Source of the DNA: a phage
Length of the DNA stretch: 64,000 nucleotides
Direction: 5' to 3' (one strand)
Sequence record: PZ386977.1
The notes beneath the pieces were generated by a model. The model searched no databases, was not told the origin of the DNA, and saw only the letters and a program-made list of their open reading frames with translations. This document shows, one piece after another, positions 1 to 37,144 of this stretch. How positions within the stretch are numbered: the stretch's first letter is position 1; every line of letters starts with the position of its first letter. Position numbers and translations under genes: made by a program.

Positions 1-936
1 CTCGGTCTCGTTTTCAAGAGTGAAAATGGTCTCTAAAGGCTTCCACAGTTCTAACAAATTACCTTCAAACTTTTCAGAAGCATAAGCTTCAAGAACTTTC
101 AAAATGTAGTCGGTGCTACCTGTACGTCCTGAAACTTTGAATTGAGTGATACCAATATCATTATAAAGTTTCAAATCTTGAGGACGAACAAAACGAGTTC
201 TCAACCAGTTAAATGGGTCTGTATCACGAGCTTTAATACAGTGCTGCATTGGATATCCGTTTAAGGATTTAGCATCATCAGCTGTAACATCAGTACTATG
301 GAAAATATAGCAAGAGTCACGATAGCTACAATGTGTTGTATACCCTTTACCAGCATTAGAACAGAACTCATTTACAAGAACTTCAAATATTATATTGTTC
401 TTATTGCAAAACTCTGCTGCACGCTTCAGGAAAGAAACTGAACGGTTCTTATGAATTCCGCAACAGACTTTTTTGATGTTATATTGGTCGTGCAAGTATT
501 TGATTTGAGTTACAGCATCGACATGTAGAATTGTTGAAACTTCAATCTCAATGTCTTTATTGACTTCACGAACAATTTCCATAACAACAGGGTTAGCGAT
601 AGTAATACGCCATACGCCTATTGACCAAAGATACTGAACATAATCCTGAATAGCTTTCTTCTTCCACTCGACTAGTTCTCTTTTTGAACCAGGATTTATC
701 GTGTTGAGTGTATAGTTAAAGCAAATACCTAATTCGTTACAACGTTTAACGTAATCTTCTAACATCTTTTTGTCAACGTCAGGAAGCCTAAAATCAGGTC
801 TGGCTGCTACAAAAGCCATTTCTCTTGTAGAGCCATATACTTCGTTTATCAAGCTATTAGGATAGGTTTTATTGAGCTCTACGATTTTATCAAGAAGAGC
901 TAAATCAAAATTCGTTCCGATTTTAAAAGTATTCAT
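1..936 (-). CDS. hypothetical Cys-rich enzyme, 3' end beyond window edge (possibly U32-like TIM-barrel/Fe-S protein; tentative)
   Basis: Minus-strand reading frame from ATG at 936 runs off the window start; translation MNTFKIGTNFDL...; clustered Cys FCSNAGKGYTTHCSYRDSC; absent from ORF track because no stop in window. Confidence 0.35.
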   Translation of the reverse strand, partial: MNTFKIGTNFDLALLDKIVELNKTYPNSLINEVYGSTREMAFVAARPDFRLPDVDKKMLEDYVKRCNELGICFNYTLNTINPGSKRELVEWKKKAIQDYVQYLWSIGVWRITIANPVVMEIVREVNKDIEIEVSTILHVDAVTQIKYLHDQYNIKKVCCGIHKNRSVSFLKRAAEFCNKNNIIFEVLVNEFCSNAGKGYTTHCSYRDSCYIFHSTDVTADDAKSLNGYPMQHCIKARDTDPFNWLRTRFVRPQDLKLYNDIGITQFKVSGRTGSTDYILKVLEAYASEKFEGNLLELWKPLETIFTLENETE

Positions 937-993
937 TTTTTTGCATCTCGCGTTAATTGATGCGATGGTTTTTTGCAGGTCTTACTTAAATTA

Positions 994-1380
994 TTATAGA
1001 TTCGGTTTATATGATTTAAATGTTTCGAATTCGCCTTTATTCATAAGAGCTTTGAATTCGTCAGGACGCATAGCTTTGTCGTCGATAATCCAATCATATA
1101 CTGGTTTATGTGTTAGCAAATTATGGTACTTCAAGCCAATGTTTGCCAAGTTCTGAATCAGACTTGGGAGAATGTCAATTGCTATACGTCCAGGACCTAC
1201 TGACTTCATACCACGAGCAGTGTAAAGCGTTATGGTGTGCCCTGCATCATACAGGGCATTAATGGCGGACACCATTTCGACGTCTGGTTTGAAGTTCACA
1301 TAATCACGATTGTTATTCCATTCCGTGATGCAATCATCGACATCAAAACAAAGATTAAGCATGTTTTCTACACGGTGCAT
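994..1380 (-). CDS. HAD-superfamily phosphatase-like protein
   Basis: FDVDDCIT (motif I-like) and WIIDDK (motif IV-like); ATG at 1380 overlaps upstream stop (TAATG); track ORF 994..1395. Confidence 0.5.
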   Translation of the reverse strand: MHRVENMLNLCFDVDDCITEWNNNRDYVNFKPDVEMVSAINALYDAGHTITLYTARGMKSVGPGRIAIDILPSLIQNLANIGLKYHNLLTHKPVYDWIIDDKAMRPDEFKALMNKGEFETFKSYKPNL

Positions 1381-3065
1381 TAGATTCGTTCCCATTGATG
1401 AGTGATATCGCCACCGATTGGACGATAGGAAACACCAGTTTCTTTATCAGTTAGTACCCATTTACCAGGATTTTTTGTAATCAGAGTAGCCGTTACAGGT
1501 TCTGCTACGTCATAACTAATAGAGCCATCTTGAAGTACACGGCCCATGTTACGTAATTGCTTAGTCAGAAGTTCCATACCTTTATAATATGCGGCTACCG
1601 CTTTAAGTGGATTATTCTTGAAATAACCACCTAATGCAATCCAGATAATTGCTACTGCCAAATGATGATACTCGTTAAACGAACTCATCTTTCCATATTT
1701 GTAAACTAATGGATTGATGTTAATAGTCACATTACAAGTTGTTTCATCAATAATAAACTGACCCCAGGTCGGATTAGCATTGAATTCATCATAACCTGAA
1801 ACAGCATAAAGCACTTTAGCTTCATCATACAATTTTGGCCCGTAAATCTTGGTTTCACCAAAATATCCACGAGGGTCGATAAACTTGACTTCGCCGTTAT
1901 CAGTAATCATAGTATTACTGAAGTTCGGGTCACCATGAATAACAGAGTACTGTCCCTGAGAACGGTTATGATAACGAATAAGATGTTCTAAAGCTTGTTT
2001 CAACATTGGCTTCAGACGTCCAATCTTAGTGTAGTTCACGTGTGTGATTTTACCAAATGAATCAATCAATGGCTGAATGCTTTCACAACGATCAATAACT
2101 TTCGTATAGAACTCTTTAGTGAAATCACGGCGAACAGTTTCAGGACTTACAAAATAAGTGTCTGTGCTGAATTTCAGTGCATCTAAAATTGCATCAACAA
2201 TTTGTGGACGAGCAAGACTTGATTTGGATTTAATATATTCAAATGCCGGCTTACCTTTAATACGTTCCATTTCAAAGTTATTTTCATTAACAGAAACTAA
2301 CTGAGGGACTGAATCTGATTTCACTTTCAAATACCATGAAATCTCATCTTTCTGAAGAGCTCGACCCTGTTCGGTTAATGCGAATTTAGTTACAGTTTCT
2401 TCACCAATTTCAACTGCATTAAAACTACGATTAAGTTCACGAACTTCATGAGCTTTTTCAAGTTTAGGCATATCACCTAAATCAATTATATTCATAAGCT
2501 CTGATTTATTGAATGCGCCGCTGTAAAGGAATTCTACGAAATCACGTCCTTTGCAGTATTCATGAATTTCCTCATCAGTAGAACCCATATAGAATTCCCA
2601 GTCTTTGAACTGATAAATTCCTACAACATTACCACCTGTTGAACCTACGTTAGTGATATTTTCACCATCGAAATTATATCGACATTCATCACCCTTAACA
2701 TAGATTGCGTTAACATTCCAAGACCATGAACCAAAGTCAGGAATAATATCACACCAGTTAACAATTACGTTATGGCCATCTAAATCTTTGTATAATTTAG
2801 CAAGAGCATAAGCAGAACCATACGCTTCATCAACTGTACGAATAGTCACATTGAACCCTTCTTGCTCGCAATAAGCTCGAACAGTTTCAGCAAATTTTGA
2901 ATGAACTACTACAATAATTTCATCTGCGCCAAGGTCAGAATAAATTGTATACAAATTGCTCAGAATAGTGTCTTGTTTATAGTTAACAAGCACCTTAGGA
3001 ATATGGTGCGTTATTGGATACAAACGAGTTGCCAGTCCAGCACCAAGAATAACAGCTTTTTTCAT
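1380..3065 (-). CDS. bifunctional sugar-1-phosphate nucleotidyltransferase / sugar kinase
   Basis: 561 aa; N-terminal ILGAGLATRLYP nucleotidyltransferase G-loop; C-terminal HGDPNFSN and IDPRG kinase motifs (APH/anomeric-kinase type). Confidence 0.7.
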   Translation of the reverse strand: MKKAVILGAGLATRLYPITHHIPKVLVNYKQDTILSNLYTIYSDLGADEIIVVVHSKFAETVRAYCEQEGFNVTIRTVDEAYGSAYALAKLYKDLDGHNVIVNWCDIIPDFGSWSWNVNAIYVKGDECRYNFDGENITNVGSTGGNVVGIYQFKDWEFYMGSTDEEIHEYCKGRDFVEFLYSGAFNKSELMNIIDLGDMPKLEKAHEVRELNRSFNAVEIGEETVTKFALTEQGRALQKDEISWYLKVKSDSVPQLVSVNENNFEMERIKGKPAFEYIKSKSSLARPQIVDAILDALKFSTDTYFVSPETVRRDFTKEFYTKVIDRCESIQPLIDSFGKITHVNYTKIGRLKPMLKQALEHLIRYHNRSQGQYSVIHGDPNFSNTMITDNGEVKFIDPRGYFGETKIYGPKLYDEAKVLYAVSGYDEFNANPTWGQFIIDETTCNVTININPLVYKYGKMSSFNEYHHLAVAIIWIALGGYFKNNPLKAVAAYYKGMELLTKQLRNMGRVLQDGSISYDVAEPVTATLITKNPGKWVLTDKETGVSYRPIGGDITHQWERI

Positions 3066-3106
3066 GTTGTGGTCCTCATTGGTAAGTAGGTGTATTGTAC
3101 ACTATT

Positions 3107-3250
3107 CTAGTTAAAGCATTCATACTTTGCTTGTAGCCCAATCATAATCCATCCGATTATAAGAGTCGGAATCATTACTGGAGCCGTTAAGCTCCAGTAG
3201 ATAGTCATGACAAGCATCAATAGTAAAAGTCCTATTGTTATTGCTTTCAT
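3107..3250 (-). CDS. small hydrophobic membrane peptide (47 aa)
   Basis: ATG at 3250 overlaps TGA of upstream gene (ATGA); MKAITIGLLLLMLVMTIYWSLTAPVMIPTLIIGWIMIGLQAKYECFN; below ORF-track size cutoff. Confidence 0.35.
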   Translation of the reverse strand: MKAITIGLLLLMLVMTIYWSLTAPVMIPTLIIGWIMIGLQAKYECFN

Positions 3251-3882
3251 TGTTCGCCTCGTAACATGGCACCTAGTGAACCGCCTGGATGGAACTTAAG
3301 GAAGTCATTAGAGGTAAATCCACGTTCAGACGAAAGGTTGATAGCGAACGTATCGATAAGCGCTAACAACAATGTAGTGGACATGGTCGGAGCCAGAGAA
3401 TTCTCATCAACCTCTACCGCGATGCCTGTACAGAACGTATAATCAAAAAGAGCTTCGTATTCTTGCGGAATGTCAGGGTTACAATGTAACAGAATCTGTT
3501 TAACCTGAGGACGAATCATACGAAGATGTTTAGCAACACCTATCATTTCTTCAGTCTTACCAGAACGACTGATGTGAACTAATACATCATTAGGTGCAAT
3601 AAATCCTGCGTCGCCATGAGAATAATGCCCGGTGTTCAAATACATGCTAGGAATACCTAGTGAAGCAAAAGTCTCGGAAGCTTTAGTTGCGATATTAGCG
3701 TTCTTACCAACACCTGTAATAATTACTCGGCTTTCATAATTACTCAGTCCAGGGCGACGAAGAGTTTCAAGAATAGCATTATATCGGGCAGAGTTTTGAC
3801 TAATTACTTTAGCCATAGTGGCAAGAGATGAAGCTTGTTTTACGATTGCGTCAATAGCGATAGTGATTGGTGTAGTTTTCAT
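3247..3882 (-). CDS. SIS-domain sugar-phosphate isomerase (GmhA/KdsD-like)
   Basis: 211 aa; ITGVGKNANIA and HISRSGKTEE SIS-type motifs. Confidence 0.7.
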   Translation of the reverse strand: MKTTPITIAIDAIVKQASSLATMAKVISQNSARYNAILETLRRPGLSNYESRVIITGVGKNANIATKASETFASLGIPSMYLNTGHYSHGDAGFIAPNDVLVHISRSGKTEEMIGVAKHLRMIRPQVKQILLHCNPDIPQEYEALFDYTFCTGIAVEVDENSLAPTMSTTLLLALIDTFAINLSSERGFTSNDFLKFHPGGSLGAMLRGEQ

Positions 3883-3922: not shown

Positions 3923-6634
3923 TCAAAAATCGAACATATCGAACAGAGATGCTTTCTTCTCGTAATCGAGTTTCGCTGCTGATGTGAATCCTTCAAGTGG
4001 TTTAATAAATGTCTTCTCAAGGAGAACAGTGTAGTCCATCCAATGAAGTACGTCGTCTTTAATTAAATCTGTGATTTCAGTACCAGAAGGCCATGCGATA
4101 CATTTATCACCGAATGGGTTTCCTTCACGTAAAGGCAGAACATATACCTTTTCGCCTTCTACAACTTGTGGAGCATCAATATTACCTTTGATAGCCCGGT
4201 TATACGTCAGAATTCCACGAATATGGAACGGACATTTTGGACCAGGGAATCCACCTACATCATATTTAGCAATGTTATTCGCAGAAGATACCGACGCGAT
4301 GCTAATATAATTCAATTGACGGAATTCTTTTTCAAACTCTTTAAAATATTCTTGTAATGATTCTTCACCTTCTTGAAGCATACGACGAATACATTCTTTA
4401 AGAGCTTTCTGTACCGCTTTAGGAGTTGAAGATTTCTGTGTTTCGAGACCCATGATTTTGAGTTTAGGCTCAGCGTAACGAGTACCTTCCATATCCCACA
4501 CGTTTAATGCGTAACGTTTCTTACCAGTCCAGAATCCACCAATACCTTTAGAGCCAAGTGGAGGACCAGCGATAGCTTCTCGGTCCATGAACATTAAGTG
4601 TTGTTTATTGTTCATGTATTCACACATTTCACGGAAACCTCTATCAATAGCAGGTTCCATACGTTCACGAGCGAACTTATCTAAGAAGTCCACCCAATGG
4701 TTGGTATCACGGAATTTAGATTCACCAACCTTATCAATAATTTTATCAGCAGATACGTAAATAGAGTCTGTATCACCATATAGAACGAAAGCTTCACCTT
4801 CTGTACCACAAACTTCATTCAGATATTCATTAACTTTACGTTCAATCCACTGTAAAGCCATTTGCCCGAATGTTGTGATTGCAGTAGCATTACGCAAATC
4901 ATAATAACGGAACCAAACGTTGCCAAGTGCACCATAAAGTGAGTTGATAAGCAATTTACGGTTAATTTGTGCAGTCATACCTGCAACTTCAGTACGTTGA
5001 GCTCTAAACAACATTTCATTAAGAGATTTAGCAGACAACTTTTTAATCTTTTCTTTAATCTCATCGCTGAAGTCGAAACGATAATCAACATCTAACGGTT
5101 CGTCAACAGAAAGATTAGGATTATGCAATGCCTCTTTAATTATTTCACCATTACGTTGAGCTGCAAGCATGTAACCTTTATGTTCTTTACGTTGATTAAA
5201 GACCTTAGTGATTTCAGTTGGAACTACACCATCACGGTCTTTATAATACATCATGCCATTAGGAGAGCAGCTGTACACATCTGAAGGACGTTCAGCGATT
5301 GCGTTAATATAATCATGCAATGGAGCTACTTTAAACGTTCCTGCTATTGTTTCTGGGCTAATATTCACTTGGCGAATAATACTTGGATACAGAGATGTAA
5401 GGTCGAAACTCATTACATATTTGTATCGATTTGGAATAGGTTCCTTAACAAAAGCGCCAGGATAAGGTTGAACCGGGTGAGAACGACCTTGTGGAATCAC
5501 CTTGTTCTGCTCTTTAAGGCTATTAAAAATAATAGCATCCCATGTTTTAATTGGGCTGAACACAGATTGAATCTGTATCTTAGCATAATAACCCATGTCC
5601 AAACTCAAGTTGATGAACTGGCGCTTAGCATCAATTTGCAATACACGATACACGTCGATGATGTTATAAGAAATATATCGTTGGTGATTGCTTTCACGAA
5701 GCTTAGAAATAGGGCCGTCATATTTCAGTTTACCAACGTTCAATTCAAATTCTGAAATGTAATCCAGAGAATACGACGGTTGATTAGTAAAAGAGAATTT
5801 TTTGTAAAGGTCAATGTAATCAAGAACAGAGATACCGAACAATGTAATGATTTCACGAGAACCATACATGTTTTCGATAACTTTAACACGAGTTTTACGA
5901 TGTGGTGATAAACGTTTCGCAGTAGATTCACCAAAAATATTCTTGATTCTGTTATACACATATGGAATATCAAATGACTCAACGTTCCATCCAGTCAAAA
6001 TGACAGGAGTTTTCTGTTGCCAGAAGTTGAGATATTCCATCAACAATTCTTTTTCGTTATCGAACGGCATATAAATGATTTTATCGATAATTTCAGATGG
6101 AACTTCATCACCACCTTGTTCTTGAAGCTTAGCAGCGATTTCAATAGACCATTCTTCCACATTGCCGTATGGAGAATTCAATAGATCAAATACATAGAAC
6201 CTGTCGTCAATTGAGTCATAATGGGTGATAGCATCAATCGGATGTTTTGCTTGTGACGGCTCAGGGAACCCATCCGGAGATGTTACTTCGATGTCGAAGT
6301 TAGCCACACGAATTTTTGTATGGTCGTATTTGATTTCATAGTTATAAGTGTCAGACAAATACGCCAATTTGAAATCGTCCATGCCAAGTGCTTCAAGTCC
6401 GATATCTTCCATGCGTTTAATCCATTGGGAGGCATCACGCATATTAGCGAACAACTTACGAGTACACGGCTTACCGTAGATATCGAAATATTTCGTGGCC
6501 TGACTTTCTGGACAATGAGCAAACAATGATGGTTTATATTCTACTTCACGAGTACGTTCACGGCCATTAGAATCGATGTAACGTTCAAAAATTGAATCAC
6601 CAATCTGTTCAACCGTTAAGTAAAATTCTTTCAT
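3923..6634 (-). CDS. 43: DNA polymerase, family B (gp43)
   Basis: 903 aa; exo motif FDIEV; polymerase motifs SLYPS, KILINSLYG, YGDTDS, KKRY; N-terminus MKEFYLTVEQIGDSIFERYID matches my recollection of RB69 gp43. Confidence 0.97.
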   Translation of the reverse strand: MKEFYLTVEQIGDSIFERYIDSNGRERTREVEYKPSLFAHCPESQATKYFDIYGKPCTRKLFANMRDASQWIKRMEDIGLEALGMDDFKLAYLSDTYNYEIKYDHTKIRVANFDIEVTSPDGFPEPSQAKHPIDAITHYDSIDDRFYVFDLLNSPYGNVEEWSIEIAAKLQEQGGDEVPSEIIDKIIYMPFDNEKELLMEYLNFWQQKTPVILTGWNVESFDIPYVYNRIKNIFGESTAKRLSPHRKTRVKVIENMYGSREIITLFGISVLDYIDLYKKFSFTNQPSYSLDYISEFELNVGKLKYDGPISKLRESNHQRYISYNIIDVYRVLQIDAKRQFINLSLDMGYYAKIQIQSVFSPIKTWDAIIFNSLKEQNKVIPQGRSHPVQPYPGAFVKEPIPNRYKYVMSFDLTSLYPSIIRQVNISPETIAGTFKVAPLHDYINAIAERPSDVYSCSPNGMMYYKDRDGVVPTEITKVFNQRKEHKGYMLAAQRNGEIIKEALHNPNLSVDEPLDVDYRFDFSDEIKEKIKKLSAKSLNEMLFRAQRTEVAGMTAQINRKLLINSLYGALGNVWFRYYDLRNATAITTFGQMALQWIERKVNEYLNEVCGTEGEAFVLYGDTDSIYVSADKIIDKVGESKFRDTNHWVDFLDKFARERMEPAIDRGFREMCEYMNNKQHLMFMDREAIAGPPLGSKGIGGFWTGKKRYALNVWDMEGTRYAEPKLKIMGLETQKSSTPKAVQKALKECIRRMLQEGEESLQEYFKEFEKEFRQLNYISIASVSSANNIAKYDVGGFPGPKCPFHIRGILTYNRAIKGNIDAPQVVEGEKVYVLPLREGNPFGDKCIAWPSGTEITDLIKDDVLHWMDYTVLLEKTFIKPLEGFTSAAKLDYEKKASLFDMFDF

Positions 6635-9417: not shown

Positions 9418-9834
9418 TTATGCAGCAACCATCTGCTTTTTAATAGCTTCAGGCAGTGATTCAATATATTCTGGAATTTTAGAAGCAACAATTTCGCCAG
9501 CTGCAATTAGTTGTTCGTCGGCATCAACACAATAGAAATCTTCCAGGCGCTCAGAACCATCTTTATCAAGAACGATTTTTCCACCAGCTTCAATAGAATC
9601 TTTATAGTGCTTACGCATCAGATGAATCCACATATCAGATACATCGTTATCAATAAAACCATAAATCATAAAACGAGTTTCTTGTGGCAAAGATTGAAGC
9701 TTTTTAGCACTTGCGTCATCACAATGCAGGACCCATGCTTTACGAACACGATTATGGTTATGCGGGTTAGCGTCAGTACGGATAGAAGTAACTTTCAGAT
9801 CAGCAGCAGTGAAACCTTTAGCAGTAGTAAACAT
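9418..9834 (-). CDS. rpbA: RNA polymerase binding protein RpbA-like
   Basis: 138-aa ORF in rpbA position between 45 and 46. Confidence 0.55.
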   Translation of the reverse strand: MFTTAKGFTAADLKVTSIRTDANPHNHNRVRKAWVLHCDDASAKKLQSLPQETRFMIYGFIDNDVSDMWIHLMRKHYKDSIEAGGKIVLDKDGSERLEDFYCVDADEQLIAAGEIVASKIPEYIESLPEAIKKQMVAA

Positions 9835-9846
9835 ATTATTTCTCTC

Positions 9847-10038
9847 TTATTCGTAGAAGTCAGTAACTGTCCATGCGGAATTGCGATTAGACATTATTTT
9901 ATTATACTCATCTTTAAAAGCAGATTTGAGCATTTGTTCAGTAACAATATGTTCTTCACCTGAAAACGTATTGGTCAAAACATATTTTTTAATTTCAGGA
10001 ACAACGAGAAGATGTTGTCCGGTTGAATACTCCGCCAT
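9847..10038 (-). CDS. hypothetical protein (45.2-like)
   Basis: 63-aa ORF, syntenic small gene. Confidence 0.5.
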   Translation of the reverse strand: MAEYSTGQHLLVVPEIKKYVLTNTFSGEEHIVTEQMLKSAFKDEYNKIMSNRNSAWTVTDFYE

Positions 10039-18991: not shown

Positions 18992-19462
18992 TTAATCATG
19001 TTTCCACACCCCATCGGTATTTGACCAAAGTCGCTGATTATCTGATCCTCGCCACAGCTTTTTGGTCGGAAGACTTTTCTCATACTTCCCATCAATAATA
19101 ACATCAACATATTTAAGCATTTCTAGTTGTTTAATATCTTCAAACTTATATCCTGTCCACAACCAAATGCTTTTATTGGGATAAAGATTTTTTACTGTTT
19201 GAACAATGCAATGAACAACATCTCGGTTATCAGGATAGAGAGGGTCTCCTCCGGTTATAGTAAATCCTTCTATATAATCATTATTCAAACATTCAATTAA
19301 TTGTTCTAGTGTCTCTCCAGTGAATGGAGCACCATTTCTAGCGTTCCATGTTGATTTATTATAACACCCTTCACATTTATGCAAACAACCTGTAACGAAA
19401 AGAACGACCCTACAACCAGGGCCATTCACAAAATCGCAAGGATAAAATCTATCATAATTCAT
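18992..19462 (-). CDS. nrdG: anaerobic ribonucleotide reductase activating protein NrdG (radical SAM)
   Basis: 156 aa; GCLHKCEGCYN cysteine motif. Confidence 0.9.
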   Translation of the reverse strand: MNYDRFYPCDFVNGPGCRVVLFVTGCLHKCEGCYNKSTWNARNGAPFTGETLEQLIECLNNDYIEGFTITGGDPLYPDNRDVVHCIVQTVKNLYPNKSIWLWTGYKFEDIKQLEMLKYVDVIIDGKYEKSLPTKKLWRGSDNQRLWSNTDGVWKHD

Positions 19463-21276
19463 TGGTGTTTAACCCTATGCATGATTTCTTTATTTTTACC
19501 GAGATTAAATCCGCGCTCGTTCGGATTTCCAAGATAACCGCATGTTCTTCTTATGGTGTTCATCTTTTTAGGATCAGTTTCTCCGCAAACTGAACAAACA
19601 AATCCATTTTCGGTAGGAGTCATTTCATGGGTACTTCCACATGTAAAACATTTATCTACTGGCATATTAACACCAAAATAATCTAAATGTTGTGCAGCAT
19701 AATCCCAGACAGCCTCAAGACCTTTTAGGTTATTTTTCATATCAGGAAGTTCAACATAAGAAATGTGACCACCTGTCGCAATGAAATGATATGGCGCTTC
19801 ACGAGAAATCTTTTCAAACGGAGTAATATTTTCTTCTACTGAAACGTGGAAACTGTTAGTGTACCAGCCTTTATCGGTAACATCCTTTACACTTCCATAT
19901 TTTTCTGTATCGAGTTTACAGAAGCGATAACAAAGGTTTTCAGCAGGAGTCGAATATAAACTAAAAGCAAATCCAGTTCTTTCGGTCCACTGTTTAAGAT
20001 GAGCATTCATTTTAGTTAAAATTTCCTGTCCAATATCACGACCGACAAGAATATTCAATTCATGAATACCAATGTATCCTAAAGACACTGAACTTCTACC
20101 GTTTTTAAATAACTCAATTATATCATCATCAGGTTTAAGACGAACCCCGAATGCACCTTCTTGGTAAAGAATAGGAGCAACAGTCGCTTTAACACCCTTT
20201 AAAGAACTAATTCTACACATCAAGGCTTCAAAACACAGATCCATTCGTTCATTAAACAACTCGATAAATTTCTGTTCATTGAACTGTGTTCCAATATAAG
20301 AATCTAATGCGATGCGAGGAAGATTCAGCGTTACAACACCGAGATTATTACGTCCATCAAGAATTTCATTACCAGTCGAATCTTTCCATACGCTCAAGAA
20401 ACTACGGCAACCCATTGGAGAAACTGGAACTGAAGAACCGGTAATAGCTTTATTATTCTTAACCGAAATAATGTCAGGATACATTCTTTTGCTTGCGCAT
20501 TCTAACGCAAGTTGTTTAATATCATAGTTCGGATCATCTTTATAAAGATTAACACCTTCTTCAACAAACATAACAAGTTTAGGAAAAATAGGAGTTATTC
20601 CATCACGACCAAGACCTTTAATGCGGTTTTTAAGAATTGCCTTCTGAATAATTCGTTCAGTCCAGTCAATTCCCGTACCAAATGTAATTGTTACAAAAGG
20701 CGTTTGTCCGTTTGAACTAAAGAGAGTATTTACTTCGTATTCATAAGCTTGGAATGCGTCATAGACATCTTTTTCTGTTTTAGATTGAGCATAATTCAAC
20801 GCATCAGCGATTTGCCATTTTTCTGCATCTTCAACATGTTTAGCGTATGTGCGTTTAACATAAGGAGAAAGTACTTTATCTACATTAGCAAAAGTCGTTC
20901 CGCCATACTGGTGTGAAGCAACTTGTGCGGTAATTTGTGCCATAATTGCAGTAGCAACTCCAATTGATTTAGGAGTTTCAATTTGAGCATTACCTAGCTT
21001 AAATCCGTTCTCAAGCATTCCTTTTAAATCTACTAAACAACAATTAGTAAATGGAAGAGCAGGAGAATAATCAATATCATGAAAATGAATAATTCCGCTT
21101 TCATGCGCTTTCATAATAAAAGACGGGACCATATTTTTGGCAATGTGTTTAGACACAATACCAGCCATAAGGTCCCGTTGAGTTGGAAAAACACGAGAAT
21201 CTTTATTAGCATTCTCGTTTAAAAGGTCTTTATTAGTTTTATGAATCAATCCTTCAATTTCTTTTTCAATTGTCAT
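19459..21276 (-). CDS. nrdD: anaerobic ribonucleoside-triphosphate reductase NrdD
   Basis: 605 aa; C-terminal Zn-ribbon CFTCGSTHEM...CSVCG and glycyl-radical region RRTCGYLG. Confidence 0.95.
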   Translation of the reverse strand: MTIEKEIEGLIHKTNKDLLNENANKDSRVFPTQRDLMAGIVSKHIAKNMVPSFIMKAHESGIIHFHDIDYSPALPFTNCCLVDLKGMLENGFKLGNAQIETPKSIGVATAIMAQITAQVASHQYGGTTFANVDKVLSPYVKRTYAKHVEDAEKWQIADALNYAQSKTEKDVYDAFQAYEYEVNTLFSSNGQTPFVTITFGTGIDWTERIIQKAILKNRIKGLGRDGITPIFPKLVMFVEEGVNLYKDDPNYDIKQLALECASKRMYPDIISVKNNKAITGSSVPVSPMGCRSFLSVWKDSTGNEILDGRNNLGVVTLNLPRIALDSYIGTQFNEQKFIELFNERMDLCFEALMCRISSLKGVKATVAPILYQEGAFGVRLKPDDDIIELFKNGRSSVSLGYIGIHELNILVGRDIGQEILTKMNAHLKQWTERTGFAFSLYSTPAENLCYRFCKLDTEKYGSVKDVTDKGWYTNSFHVSVEENITPFEKISREAPYHFIATGGHISYVELPDMKNNLKGLEAVWDYAAQHLDYFGVNMPVDKCFTCGSTHEMTPTENGFVCSVCGETDPKKMNTIRRTCGYLGNPNERGFNLGKNKEIMHRVKHQ

Positions 21277-36568: not shown

Positions 36569-36782
36569 AAGGAATTTCCTCATCGGTAGCAAGGTCGTAT
36601 TCGACCAATTGGATAGGCTCATTAATACCATATCCACGTACAGTGATATCAGTTGTCGGATAGTTTCCAGTAATATCACCCATTCTAAATGCTTCAGTGA
36701 ATGATTGCTCGCCTGAGCAACTAAACCAGGCGGCAAAGCATTTTAAAACATCTTCAGACCCTTCTATAATCAATTTAGCCAT
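36558..36782 (-). CDS. hypothetical protein
   Basis: 74-aa ORF. Confidence 0.45.
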   Translation of the reverse strand: MAKLIIEGSEDVLKCFAAWFSCSGEQSFTEAFRMGDITGNYPTTDITVRGYGINEPIQLVEYDLATDEEIPYVD

Positions 36783-37144
36783 TATAGACTCTCAGTAAAG
36801 GTACGAGCGATAACGTCGCGTTGCTGTTCTGGAGTCAGAGAGTTAAAGCGAACTGCATAACCGGATACACGGATGGTCAGCTGCGGATATTTTTCCGGAT
36901 GCTTAACTGCATCTTCCAGAGTTTCACGACGCAGAACATTAACGTTCAGGTGTTGACCACCTTCAATTTTAACTTTAGGTTGATGTTCAATTTCAATTTC
37001 ACGGGCATTCAAACCGTAGAAAATTTCCGGGTCTACAATAGCGTCTTCTTTAAAAGACTTAGAGACAATAATCCGGGCCTGAGTACCGTCTTCAAAATAA
37101 ATAGTGCCTTTATGTGCACCTTCAAGAATTTGATATGCTTTCAT
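36782..37144 (-). CDS. autonomous glycyl-radical cofactor (GrcA/YfiD-like)
   Basis: 120 aa; C-terminal RVSGYAV glycyl-radical motif. Confidence 0.8.

Follow-up and report, generated by a model that had tools for sequence, protein, structure and literature searches.

A U32-family protein of RB69-like phages as a probable oxygen-independent partner of the 5-hydroxy-dCMP synthase

The DNA of phage RB69 was shown in 2026 to contain arabinosylated 5-hydroxycytosine (5hoC), not hydroxymethylcytosine, and in RB69-like phages all DNA cytosine is replaced by the arabosylated base (PMC13326640). The precursor, 5-hydroxy-deoxycytidine monophosphate (5-hydroxy-dCMP, 5hodCMP), is made by gp48, a flavin-binding homologue of thymidylate synthase (TS) that takes up 18O from O2, and gp48 together with a deoxynucleoside monophosphate (dNMP) kinase suffices for the formation of 5-hydroxydeoxycytidine (5hodC) in Escherichia coli; RB69 also has a dCTPase, and cytosine is wholly replaced before replication (PMC13326640). 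The same study lists the gene RB69p050 in a table alone, as a “sugar or heterocycle reductase” with a fold match to Protein Data Bank (PDB) entry 5D88 and no experiment, and it mentions two tRNA pyrimidine-hydroxylation pathways without drawing a connection to gene 50. We analyzed the orthologue of this gene at the edge of a 64,000-nucleotide stretch of phage DNA (record PZ386977.1; the whole stretch is called the window below). The encoded protein belongs to the U32 family, and from family membership, fold, conserved residues, gene linkage, and distribution, we infer its substrate, its oxygen source, its oxygen independence, and its physiological role: it would hydroxylate dCMP at C5 in a prephenate-dependent, O2-independent reaction and form a pair with the O2- and flavin-dependent 5hodCMP synthase, a reading to which we give a probability of about 0.6.

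The U32 proteins RlhA, TrhP, and UbiU/V are iron-sulfur (Fe-S) proteins needed for O2-independent, prephenate-dependent hydroxylations, the prephenate requirement having been defined genetically (PMC10990095, PMC6599085, PMC5727448); in ubiquinone hydroxylation, the oxygen donor is prephenate (PMC10990095). TrhP and TrhO (at tRNA U34), like UbiU-UbiV and UbiI/H/F, exemplify one hydroxylation served by two unrelated enzymes, one O2-dependent and one of the U32/prephenate type, and these pairs are kept together in facultative anaerobes (PMC6599085, PMC10990095). The proposed phage pair follows the same plan; however, the Trh and Ubi pairs are cellular and modify RNA or a membrane quinone, whereas the phage pair has a flavin-using TS homologue as partner, a DNA precursor as product, and both genes in one operon. 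RlhA (YdcP), the 5-hydroxycytidine synthase acting on C2501 of E. coli 23S rRNA, resembles the phage protein in its Pfam domain, in the conserved essential residues E161, C169, and C176, and in the proposed chemistry, a cytosine C5 hydroxylation dependent on prephenate and Fe-S. It differs in length (653 amino acids [aa], compared with 386 aa), in its C-terminal DUF3656 region, and in its substrate, a ribosome assembly intermediate, where a deoxynucleotide is proposed for the phage protein; the latter has, moreover, a C-terminal CX4CX3CX2C motif, an extra invariant Cys ahead of the signature, and CX5C in place of CX6C. RB69 gp48, the HY126 hydroxylase, and DLP3 gp80 have in common with the U32 protein the proposed product, the downstream kinase and arabinosyltransferases, and the Straboviridae cluster (PMC13326640), but their fold and cofactors are unrelated (TS fold, flavin mononucleotide, O2), and their activity is experimentally demonstrated, whereas the U32 role is proposed by comparison. 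The structurally known U32 protein Mk0906 of Methanopyrus kandleri (PDB 5D88) is 12% identical and consists of the barrel only (247 aa), with no C-terminal Cys tail.

The window fragment matches Pfam PF01136 (Peptidase_U32) at 42.9 bits (E = 4.6e-11), and the full-length protein of phage ATK47 scores 42.2 bits, PF01136 being the sole Pfam domain matched; the U32 protein also matches PHROG 5757 (E = 1e-216). The preliminary description of this stretch, which was made from the letters alone, had noted a weak resemblance to U32; the kinship holds, but the match is not weak, since its score exceeds the curated gathering cut-off of 22.4. The cysteine string quoted there, FCSNAGKGYTTHCSYRDSC, is present at residues 191 to 209 (window 310-366), but it holds three cysteines (C192, C203, and C209) instead of the four claimed; the fourth invariant Cys of the core cluster region is C233. 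In an alignment of 122 sequences (two phage sequences and 120 homologues, down to 45% identity), E190, C192, C203, C209, Y210, H213, and C233 are all invariant, so that the cysteines are not lost among homologues, and the full-length protein matches PF01136 rather than dCMP hydroxymethylase or beta-gt, the T4 genes that had been named as other outcomes. The TS-family gene is a separate open reading frame (ORF) two genes downstream (locus L001, 3784-4497; Pfam Thymidylat_synt, E = 2.4e-15). Two further conserved cysteines lie ahead of the signature (C158 and C177; Table 1), and, speculatively, one of them might act as the nucleophile at pyrimidine C6; C340, C345, C349, and C352 (CX4CX3CX2C), in the C-terminal part outside the window, are conserved as well.

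Among the four U32 paralogues of E. coli, RlhA is the closest by hhalign (Prob 88%, E = 2.8e-6, 207 columns, identity about 22% in the aligned region), and the alignment pairs E190, C203, C209, Y210, and H213 with RlhA E161, C169, C176, Y177, and H180. Mutation of C169 or C176 abolishes rRNA hydroxylation by RlhA, and mutation of E161 nearly does so (PMC5727448); the Glu and the two Cys that are essential in RlhA/UbiU are thus kept in the phage protein. The structure predicted by AlphaFold for a full-length orthologue with 87% identity (P0002; predicted local distance difference test score [pLDDT] 92.7, predicted template modeling score [pTM] 0.91) is TIM-barrel-like, with strands and helices alternating as the preliminary description had expected, and it displays the U32 barrel fold of 5D88, the sole solved member. 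PDB searches by single sequence and by profile returned no relatives, and 5D88 surfaces by fold comparison only. Profile, fold, and signature residues therefore agree with the earlier assignment to a U32-type Fe-S enzyme. A radical S-adenosylmethionine (SAM) reading, prompted by the C-terminal CX3CX(aromatic)C / CX3CX2C arrangement, found no support; neither a Radical_SAM domain nor the N-terminal partial-barrel motif was found. NCBIfam yields a single match, UbiU, whose score of 18.4 bits is far under the cut-off of 440; with this low score and no DUF3656, the phage protein is not an orthologue of UbiU, UbiV, RlhA, or TrhP but belongs to a separate, mostly viral U32 subfamily with its own C-terminal four-Cys tail.

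In the reaction envisaged, a cytosine deoxynucleotide, most probably dCMP, would be converted to 5hodCMP with an oxygen atom that comes from prephenate, not from O2, a source also proposed for RlhA (ho5C in 23S rRNA), TrhP (ho5U in tRNA), and UbiU/UbiV (anaerobic ubiquinone synthesis). The pyrimidine ring would be oxidized by two electrons passed on via [4Fe-4S] cluster(s), of which one would sit on C192/C203/C209/C233 and a second on the C-terminal C340/C345/C349/C352; prephenate would decarboxylate and deliver hydroxide to C5, leaving 5hodCMP and phenylpyruvate. Phage kinases and the polymerase would carry 5hodC into DNA, where the arabinosyltransferases would then decorate it. Because the TS-homologue synthase uses O2, yet the window encodes NrdD/NrdG and a GrcA-like protein, an O2-free enzyme would be needed: nrdD and nrdG show that the phage is equipped to replicate without oxygen, and the U32 enzyme would furnish 5hodCMP in the anoxic gut alongside the O2-needing TS homologue, forming an aerobic/anaerobic enzyme pair for hydroxylation parallel to the phage's NrdAB/NrdDG.

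Prephenate is the product of chorismate mutase, and gene linkage joins this enzyme to the U32 gene. Serratia phage LC53 and Enterobacter phage Entb_45 encode a chorismate mutase (Pfam CM_2, 44.6 and 40.9 bits, respectively; cut-off 27) in a gene that lies ahead of the TS homologue and overlaps the stop codon of U32. Such a gene lies between U32 and the TS homologue in 14 of 18 gene-called Straboviridae loci, directly after U32 in most, and for Pectobacterium phage PM2, one of the four loci scored by the gene caller as lacking it, tblastn finds one. When 50,697 phage genomes were searched by tblastn with the phage chorismate mutase, 51 records were obtained; every one of the 51 places it at the U32-TS junction, and all are T-even-like phages of Enterobacterales or Shewanella.

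The two hydroxylase genes are distributed differently among phage records. Records with the TS homologue number 374, of which 57 are from Acinetobacter and 20 from Rhizobium phages; those with the U32 gene number 222, the named ones of which all infect Enterobacterales or Shewanella. No U32 match was found in the Acinetobacter and Rhizobium phages that carry the TS homologue, and phages of strict aerobes gave none. The cluster of the Acinetobacter phage fHyAci03 reads isomerase, transferase/kinase, phosphatase, TS homologue, glycosyltransferase, and kinase, and neither this cluster nor that of E. coli phage JS98 contains U32 or chorismate mutase; neither the aerobic pathway nor the sugar chemistry therefore requires U32. 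Acinetobacter phage DLP3 likewise carries full tri-arabinosyl 5-hydroxycytosine with no U32 gene in its listed cluster (PMC13326640). An additional nucleic-acid- or sugar-modifying step had been suggested for the gene at the outset; the nucleic-acid half of this suggestion is retained, whereas the sugar half is made less likely by the fHyAci03, JS98, and DLP3 clusters and by several compact loci of distant relatives that run kinase, glycosyltransferase, and U32 with no sugar-nucleotide genes at all.

These distant relatives of the same subfamily reside on 33 viral contigs (39 to 54% identity; many of 130 to 294 kb) and 12 genome contigs, the latter being 12 loci among 185,579 species genomes, all of anaerobic lineages (e.g., Oscillospiraceae, Romboutsia, Erysipelotrichales, Gastranaerophilaceae, Tannerella, and Phocaeicola). 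After the 33 viral and 12 genome contigs had been collapsed to 32 lineages for neighbor counts, a homologue of the base-proximal 5hoC arabinosyltransferase was present beside U32 in 18 of them (hidden Markov model E = 5e-30 to 3e-24 versus the Straboviridae proteins), an NTP-transferase/kinase in 11, and a thymidylate-kinase-like kinase in 10; HAD (9 lineages), SIS (8), and dCMP deaminase (7) genes are also found there. Chorismate mutase recurs next to U32 in 6 of the 32 lineages, stand-alone or, in most, fused to DAHP synthase. No TS homologue of the 5hodCMP-synthase type lies within 10 kb of U32 in any of the 32. We also scanned IMG/VR with two motifs taken from the 5hodCMP synthase alignment, [HF]MRSQN[CM], which holds the diagnostic Asn, and LP[AS]NF[NS][TM]F. 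The scan returned 50 loci that overlap the U32 set in Straboviridae contigs only; the 33 distant contigs with U32, several of them 190 to 294 kb long, gave no match, and other jumbo contigs have the synthase and no U32. Outside the Straboviridae, where no viral contig was found to carry both genes, U32 and the synthase therefore appear to replace each other. We put at even odds the broader proposal that this mostly viral subfamily is an O2-independent, prephenate-using 5-hydroxy-pyrimidine deoxynucleotide synthase, serving as the anaerobic twin in RB69-like phages and as the sole hydroxylase in many uncultured phages of strict anaerobes, including jumbo phages of 190 to 294 kb.

Several points weigh against these proposals. 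The Cys spacing of the phage subfamily, CX10CX5CX23C, is non-canonical, the canonical form being CX6CX15-16CX3C (cluster cysteines compared: CX6C...CX3C in RlhA and TrhP; C169/C176/C193/C232 in UbiU), and no U32 protein has so far shown direct hydroxylase activity in a reconstituted in vitro system (PMC10990095). Reading of the distant contigs extended 10 kb to either side of U32, and the whole-contig test consisted of two short motifs. RlhA and TrhP are active aerobically too, so that “anaerobic backup” may be too narrow a description and the enzyme could be a parallel route. E. coli, the same facultative anaerobe, is also host to Dhakaviruses such as JS98 that have no U32, which means that the gene is not mandatory for enteric phages. 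Mosigvirus, the lineage to which the window belongs, has no phage chorismate mutase and carries another gene, ORF049c, in that slot; these phages would therefore depend on host PheA/TyrA. One distant jumbo-phage lineage (L025) has a ThyA-family gene (5500-6351) directly upstream of a run composed of a glycosyltransferase homologue, an HD-like protein, a kinase, a transferase/kinase, and U32. Its weak TS match was rejected as a 5hodCMP-synthase type, the signature being that of canonical, dUMP-using ThyA (RSGD...FND), and in this phage the glycosyl acceptor may be a uracil derivative, or two routes may coexist. Finally, no paper in the searchable literature joins phage 5hoC terms with prephenate, chorismate mutase, or RlhA, but He et al. 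2026 (Nat Chem Biol) and Mahler et al. 2025 (Cell Host Microbe) lie outside that coverage and may assign or exclude a role for the gene. The gene itself is known; its proposed function as an anaerobic DNA-precursor twin of the TS-family hydroxylase is undescribed as far as the searchable literature shows.

Other readings of the gene were weighed against the same evidence. The known U32 pyrimidine hydroxylases take polynucleotides (23S rRNA for RlhA, tRNA for TrhP), and the closest E. coli paralogue is RlhA, which would suit a post-replicative enzyme applying the same prephenate chemistry to cytosine in DNA (or to dCTP/dCDP) rather than to dCMP. The phage protein, however, is a single U32 domain with a short Cys tail and has no DUF3656 or other RNA- or DNA-binding extension, its most constant neighbors are nucleoside-monophosphate (NMP) kinases (thymidylate-kinase-like or in a guanylate-kinase fusion), as would fit a modified mononucleotide that needs phosphorylation, and the RB69 dCTPase and full replacement of cytosine before replication leave little cytosine in DNA (PMC13326640); for these reasons, a mononucleotide is favored over DNA, and we regard the post-replicative reading as unlikely. 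T-even phages carry tRNA genes, and all characterized U32 enzymes of nucleic acids act on RNA, so a hydroxylase that places ho5C or ho5U in host or phage tRNA or rRNA and tunes translation during infection was also considered. We judge it very unlikely, as the neighbors in every examined lineage serve DNA-precursor synthesis or DNA glycosylation and none is a tRNA or translation gene, the gene follows the 5hoC DNA-modification cluster across genera, and E. coli already has RlhA and TrhP.

Position in the cluster invites a further interpretation: the gene sits between the sugar module and the TS homologue, the latter requires reduced flavin, and the Fe-S-type cysteines are conserved, so that the protein could be a redox helper of the published pathway, reducing the flavin of the TS homologue, or else a modifier of the pentose, in keeping with the “sugar or heterocycle reductase” label (PMC13326640, Table 1). 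Yet gp48 and a dNMP kinase alone yield 5hodC in E. coli, DLP3 makes the complete tri-arabinosyl product although its cluster, like those of fHyAci03 and JS98, is devoid of U32, and 32 distant lineages have U32 but no TS homologue close to it, some of them lacking sugar genes as well; a helper role would, moreover, leave the exclusive linkage to chorismate mutase unexplained, and we hold it to be quite unlikely. The label found in most GenBank annotations, a collagenase-like peptidase, follows from the family name and from annotation transfer from PrtC-type proteins. It is hardly credible, as no catalytic peptidase mechanism is known for U32 proteins (PMC5727448), it is the Fe-S and hydroxylase residues that are invariant, and the gene stands in a nucleotide-metabolism context with no sign of export.

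If the dCMP hydroxylase reading is correct, it would resolve a paradox arising from the 2026 work, namely, that in gut phages with an anaerobic ribonucleotide reductase the only enzyme known to begin total cytosine replacement consumes O2, and it would explain how their DNA becomes fully modified without oxygen. With dCMP, a U32 enzyme would for the first time have a small and soluble substrate, cheap and easily assayed, and an unsolved mechanism would become accessible to in vitro work on how prephenate donates its oxygen and what accepts the electrons. The broader subfamily proposal, if correct, would imply that O-glycosylated 5-hydroxypyrimidine DNA is widespread but so far unseen in anoxic habitats, and the U32 gene would mark hydroxy-pyrimidine hypermodification in phages of anaerobes, on whose contigs the TS-homologue signature finds nothing. 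For phage therapy and the evasion of restriction or CRISPR, full modification in anoxic tissue or gut may hinge on the U32 gene and on the aromatic-amino-acid metabolism of the host.

The gene occupies a minus-strand open frame of 312 codons that opens with the ATG at 936-934 and continues to the edge of the window (position 1). A frame of at least this length with its 3' end beyond the window had been reported, and this was borne out; the full ORF, whose recovery had been proposed, is 386 aa in ATK47 and HY126 when counted from the 936 ATG, with the C-terminal 74 residues and the stop codon outside the window. Window bases 1 to 3300 share 98% identity with phages ATK47, FP43, p000v, and about 150 more (RB69-like T-even phages, Mosigvirus). 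The homopolymer just 5' of the start (window 937-950; L001 5937-5945) reads A7 in the window but A6 in ATK47, so that the upstream ATG given as the start in the ATK47 record (MQKMNTF...) does not fall in the window's reading frame; because of this, and because homologues align from MNxFK, the 936 ATG is likely the true start in window and ATK47 alike. Codon differences between window and ATK47 are all synonymous (0 non-synonymous, 16 synonymous); within Mosigvirus there are 0 non-synonymous versus 16 to 17 synonymous changes, and between genera, 28 to 53 versus 115 to 140. The frame is a real gene maintained by purifying selection. The Pfam U32 match of RB69 ORF050c was catalogued in 2006 (PMC1524935); GenBank labels the gene mostly “peptidase” or “putative protease of the collagenase family,” and the HY126 record (He laboratory) labels it “hypothetical protein.”

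The order along transcription is gp43, isomerase, a 47-aa membrane ORF, nucleotidyltransferase/kinase, HAD phosphatase, and U32, followed beyond the window by ORF049c, the TS homologue, arabinosyltransferase 1, and a thymidylate-kinase-like kinase (Table 1). A promoter/terminator scan found no terminator-like site on the minus strand of the phosphatase-U32 spacer, with nothing above chance, and promoter matches in the region are no more numerous than chance, so the sigma-70-like match there is a weak indication. With a common strand, a 57-nucleotide gap, and no terminator-like site, cotranscription of U32 with the sugar genes is plausible. The RB69 gp52:53 / AfhE-like enzyme has a role in the synthesis of nucleoside diphosphate-arabinose, and the splitting of ORF052c/053c in the RB69 reference stems from a sequencing error (PMC13326640); in agreement with this, the nucleotidyltransferase/kinase is one intact 561-aa ORF in the window. 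The stand-alone glycyl-radical protein resembles host GrcA/YfiD, a spare part for pyruvate formate-lyase.

Table 1. Coordinates of the U32 gene, its conserved sites, and other features of the window
Feature	Position	Strand	Basis or remark
U32-family Fe-S enzyme gene, first 312 of 386 codons	1..936	-	orthologue of RB69 ORF050c / RB69p050
Core Cys region, residues 191-233 (E190, C192, C203, C209, Y210, H213, C233)	238..366	-	U32 signature, altered spacing, presumed [4Fe-4S] site
Two further conserved Cys: C158 (463-465, invariant), C177 (406-408, 98%)	406..465	-	conservation table
Phosphatase-U32 spacer (57 nucleotides) and promoter match	937..1020	-	sigma-70-like TTTAAA-16-TATAAT, 1020->993, overlapping upstream gene end
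HAD-type sugar phosphatase (RB69 gp51 / AfhF-like), directly upstream of U32	994..1395	-	NCBIfam TIGR01689 capsule biosynthesis phosphatase, E = 4.3e-13; role: PMC13326640
Bifunctional nucleotidyltransferase and kinase (RB69 gp52:53 / AfhE-like)	1380..3065	-	Pfam NTP_transferase, E = 1.3e-9; weak kinase-fold matches
Arabinose-5-phosphate isomerase (SIS domain; RB69 gp55)	3247..3882	-	Pfam SIS, E = 9.6e-10; ATK47 annotation
DNA polymerase gp43	3923-6634	-	first in listed gene order
nrdG (18992-19462) and nrdD (19459-21276), radical-SAM activase and anaerobic ribonucleotide reductase	18992..21276	-	Pfam NRDD, E = 1.4e-170; Gly_radical, E = 1.4e-25; Fer4_12, E = 1.9e-48
Stand-alone glycyl-radical protein, 120 aa, GrcA-like	36782-37144	-	Gly_radical, E = 1.9e-18

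ORF049c of Mosigvirus (L001 4543-4779, minus strand) encodes 79 aa with no Cys, overlaps the U32 stop codon (ATGA), and has no Pfam or NCBIfam match; in phage HY126 it is shortened to 40 aa (L123 5718-5840). Since true chorismate mutases fill that slot in other genera, ORF049c was at first read as a degenerate form of this enzyme. This was rejected in view of the missing family match, the 40-aa form in HY126, and the Yersinia TG1-type phages, which carry an ORF049c homologue and a chorismate mutase in tandem.

In uncultured large phages, a DAHP synthase with a C-terminal chorismate mutase is encoded within the sugar/U32 operon (L035 7302-8354; also L024, L033, L034, L036, L043, and L061; Pfam DAHP_synth_1, E = 2.5e-36, and CM_2, E = 7.9e-18). 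KDO8P synthase was considered for the fusion partner, since arabinose-5-phosphate isomerase is a neighbor, and was rejected, the NCBIfam DAHP synthase models scoring 151 to 163 bits versus 53. A phage gene that drives the host shikimate pathway toward prephenate is unusual in itself.

A second conserved U32 neighborhood occurs in genomes and metagenome-assembled genomes (MAGs) of anaerobes (L070 3044-7137, Phocaeicola faecalis FXJYN30E22; also L063, L065, L068, L069, L071, and L003/L004). Its order is GP88 (PF17338), a fusion of guanylate kinase and SAM-methyltransferase (425 to 443 aa), a 265- to 282-aa protein with no Pfam match, and U32, followed at some loci by NT5C, a PnuC-like transporter, deoxynucleoside kinase, a radical SAM/SPASM protein, a second U32, and nucleoside 2-deoxyribosyltransferase. 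The gene content suggests nucleotide hydroxylation followed by O-methylation, perhaps to a 5-methoxy-pyrimidine; where U32 adjoins the kinase-methyltransferase, its product might thus be O-methylated.

Directly upstream of U32 on L041-L050 (about 9640-9890, plus strand), an 82-aa protein with a predicted membrane helix and a conserved Cys is encoded; it matches no known family and is unrelated to ORF049c. These contigs represent one jumbo-phage lineage of 194 to 294 kb, and near-identical contigs are found in Romboutsia MAGs (L066/L067).

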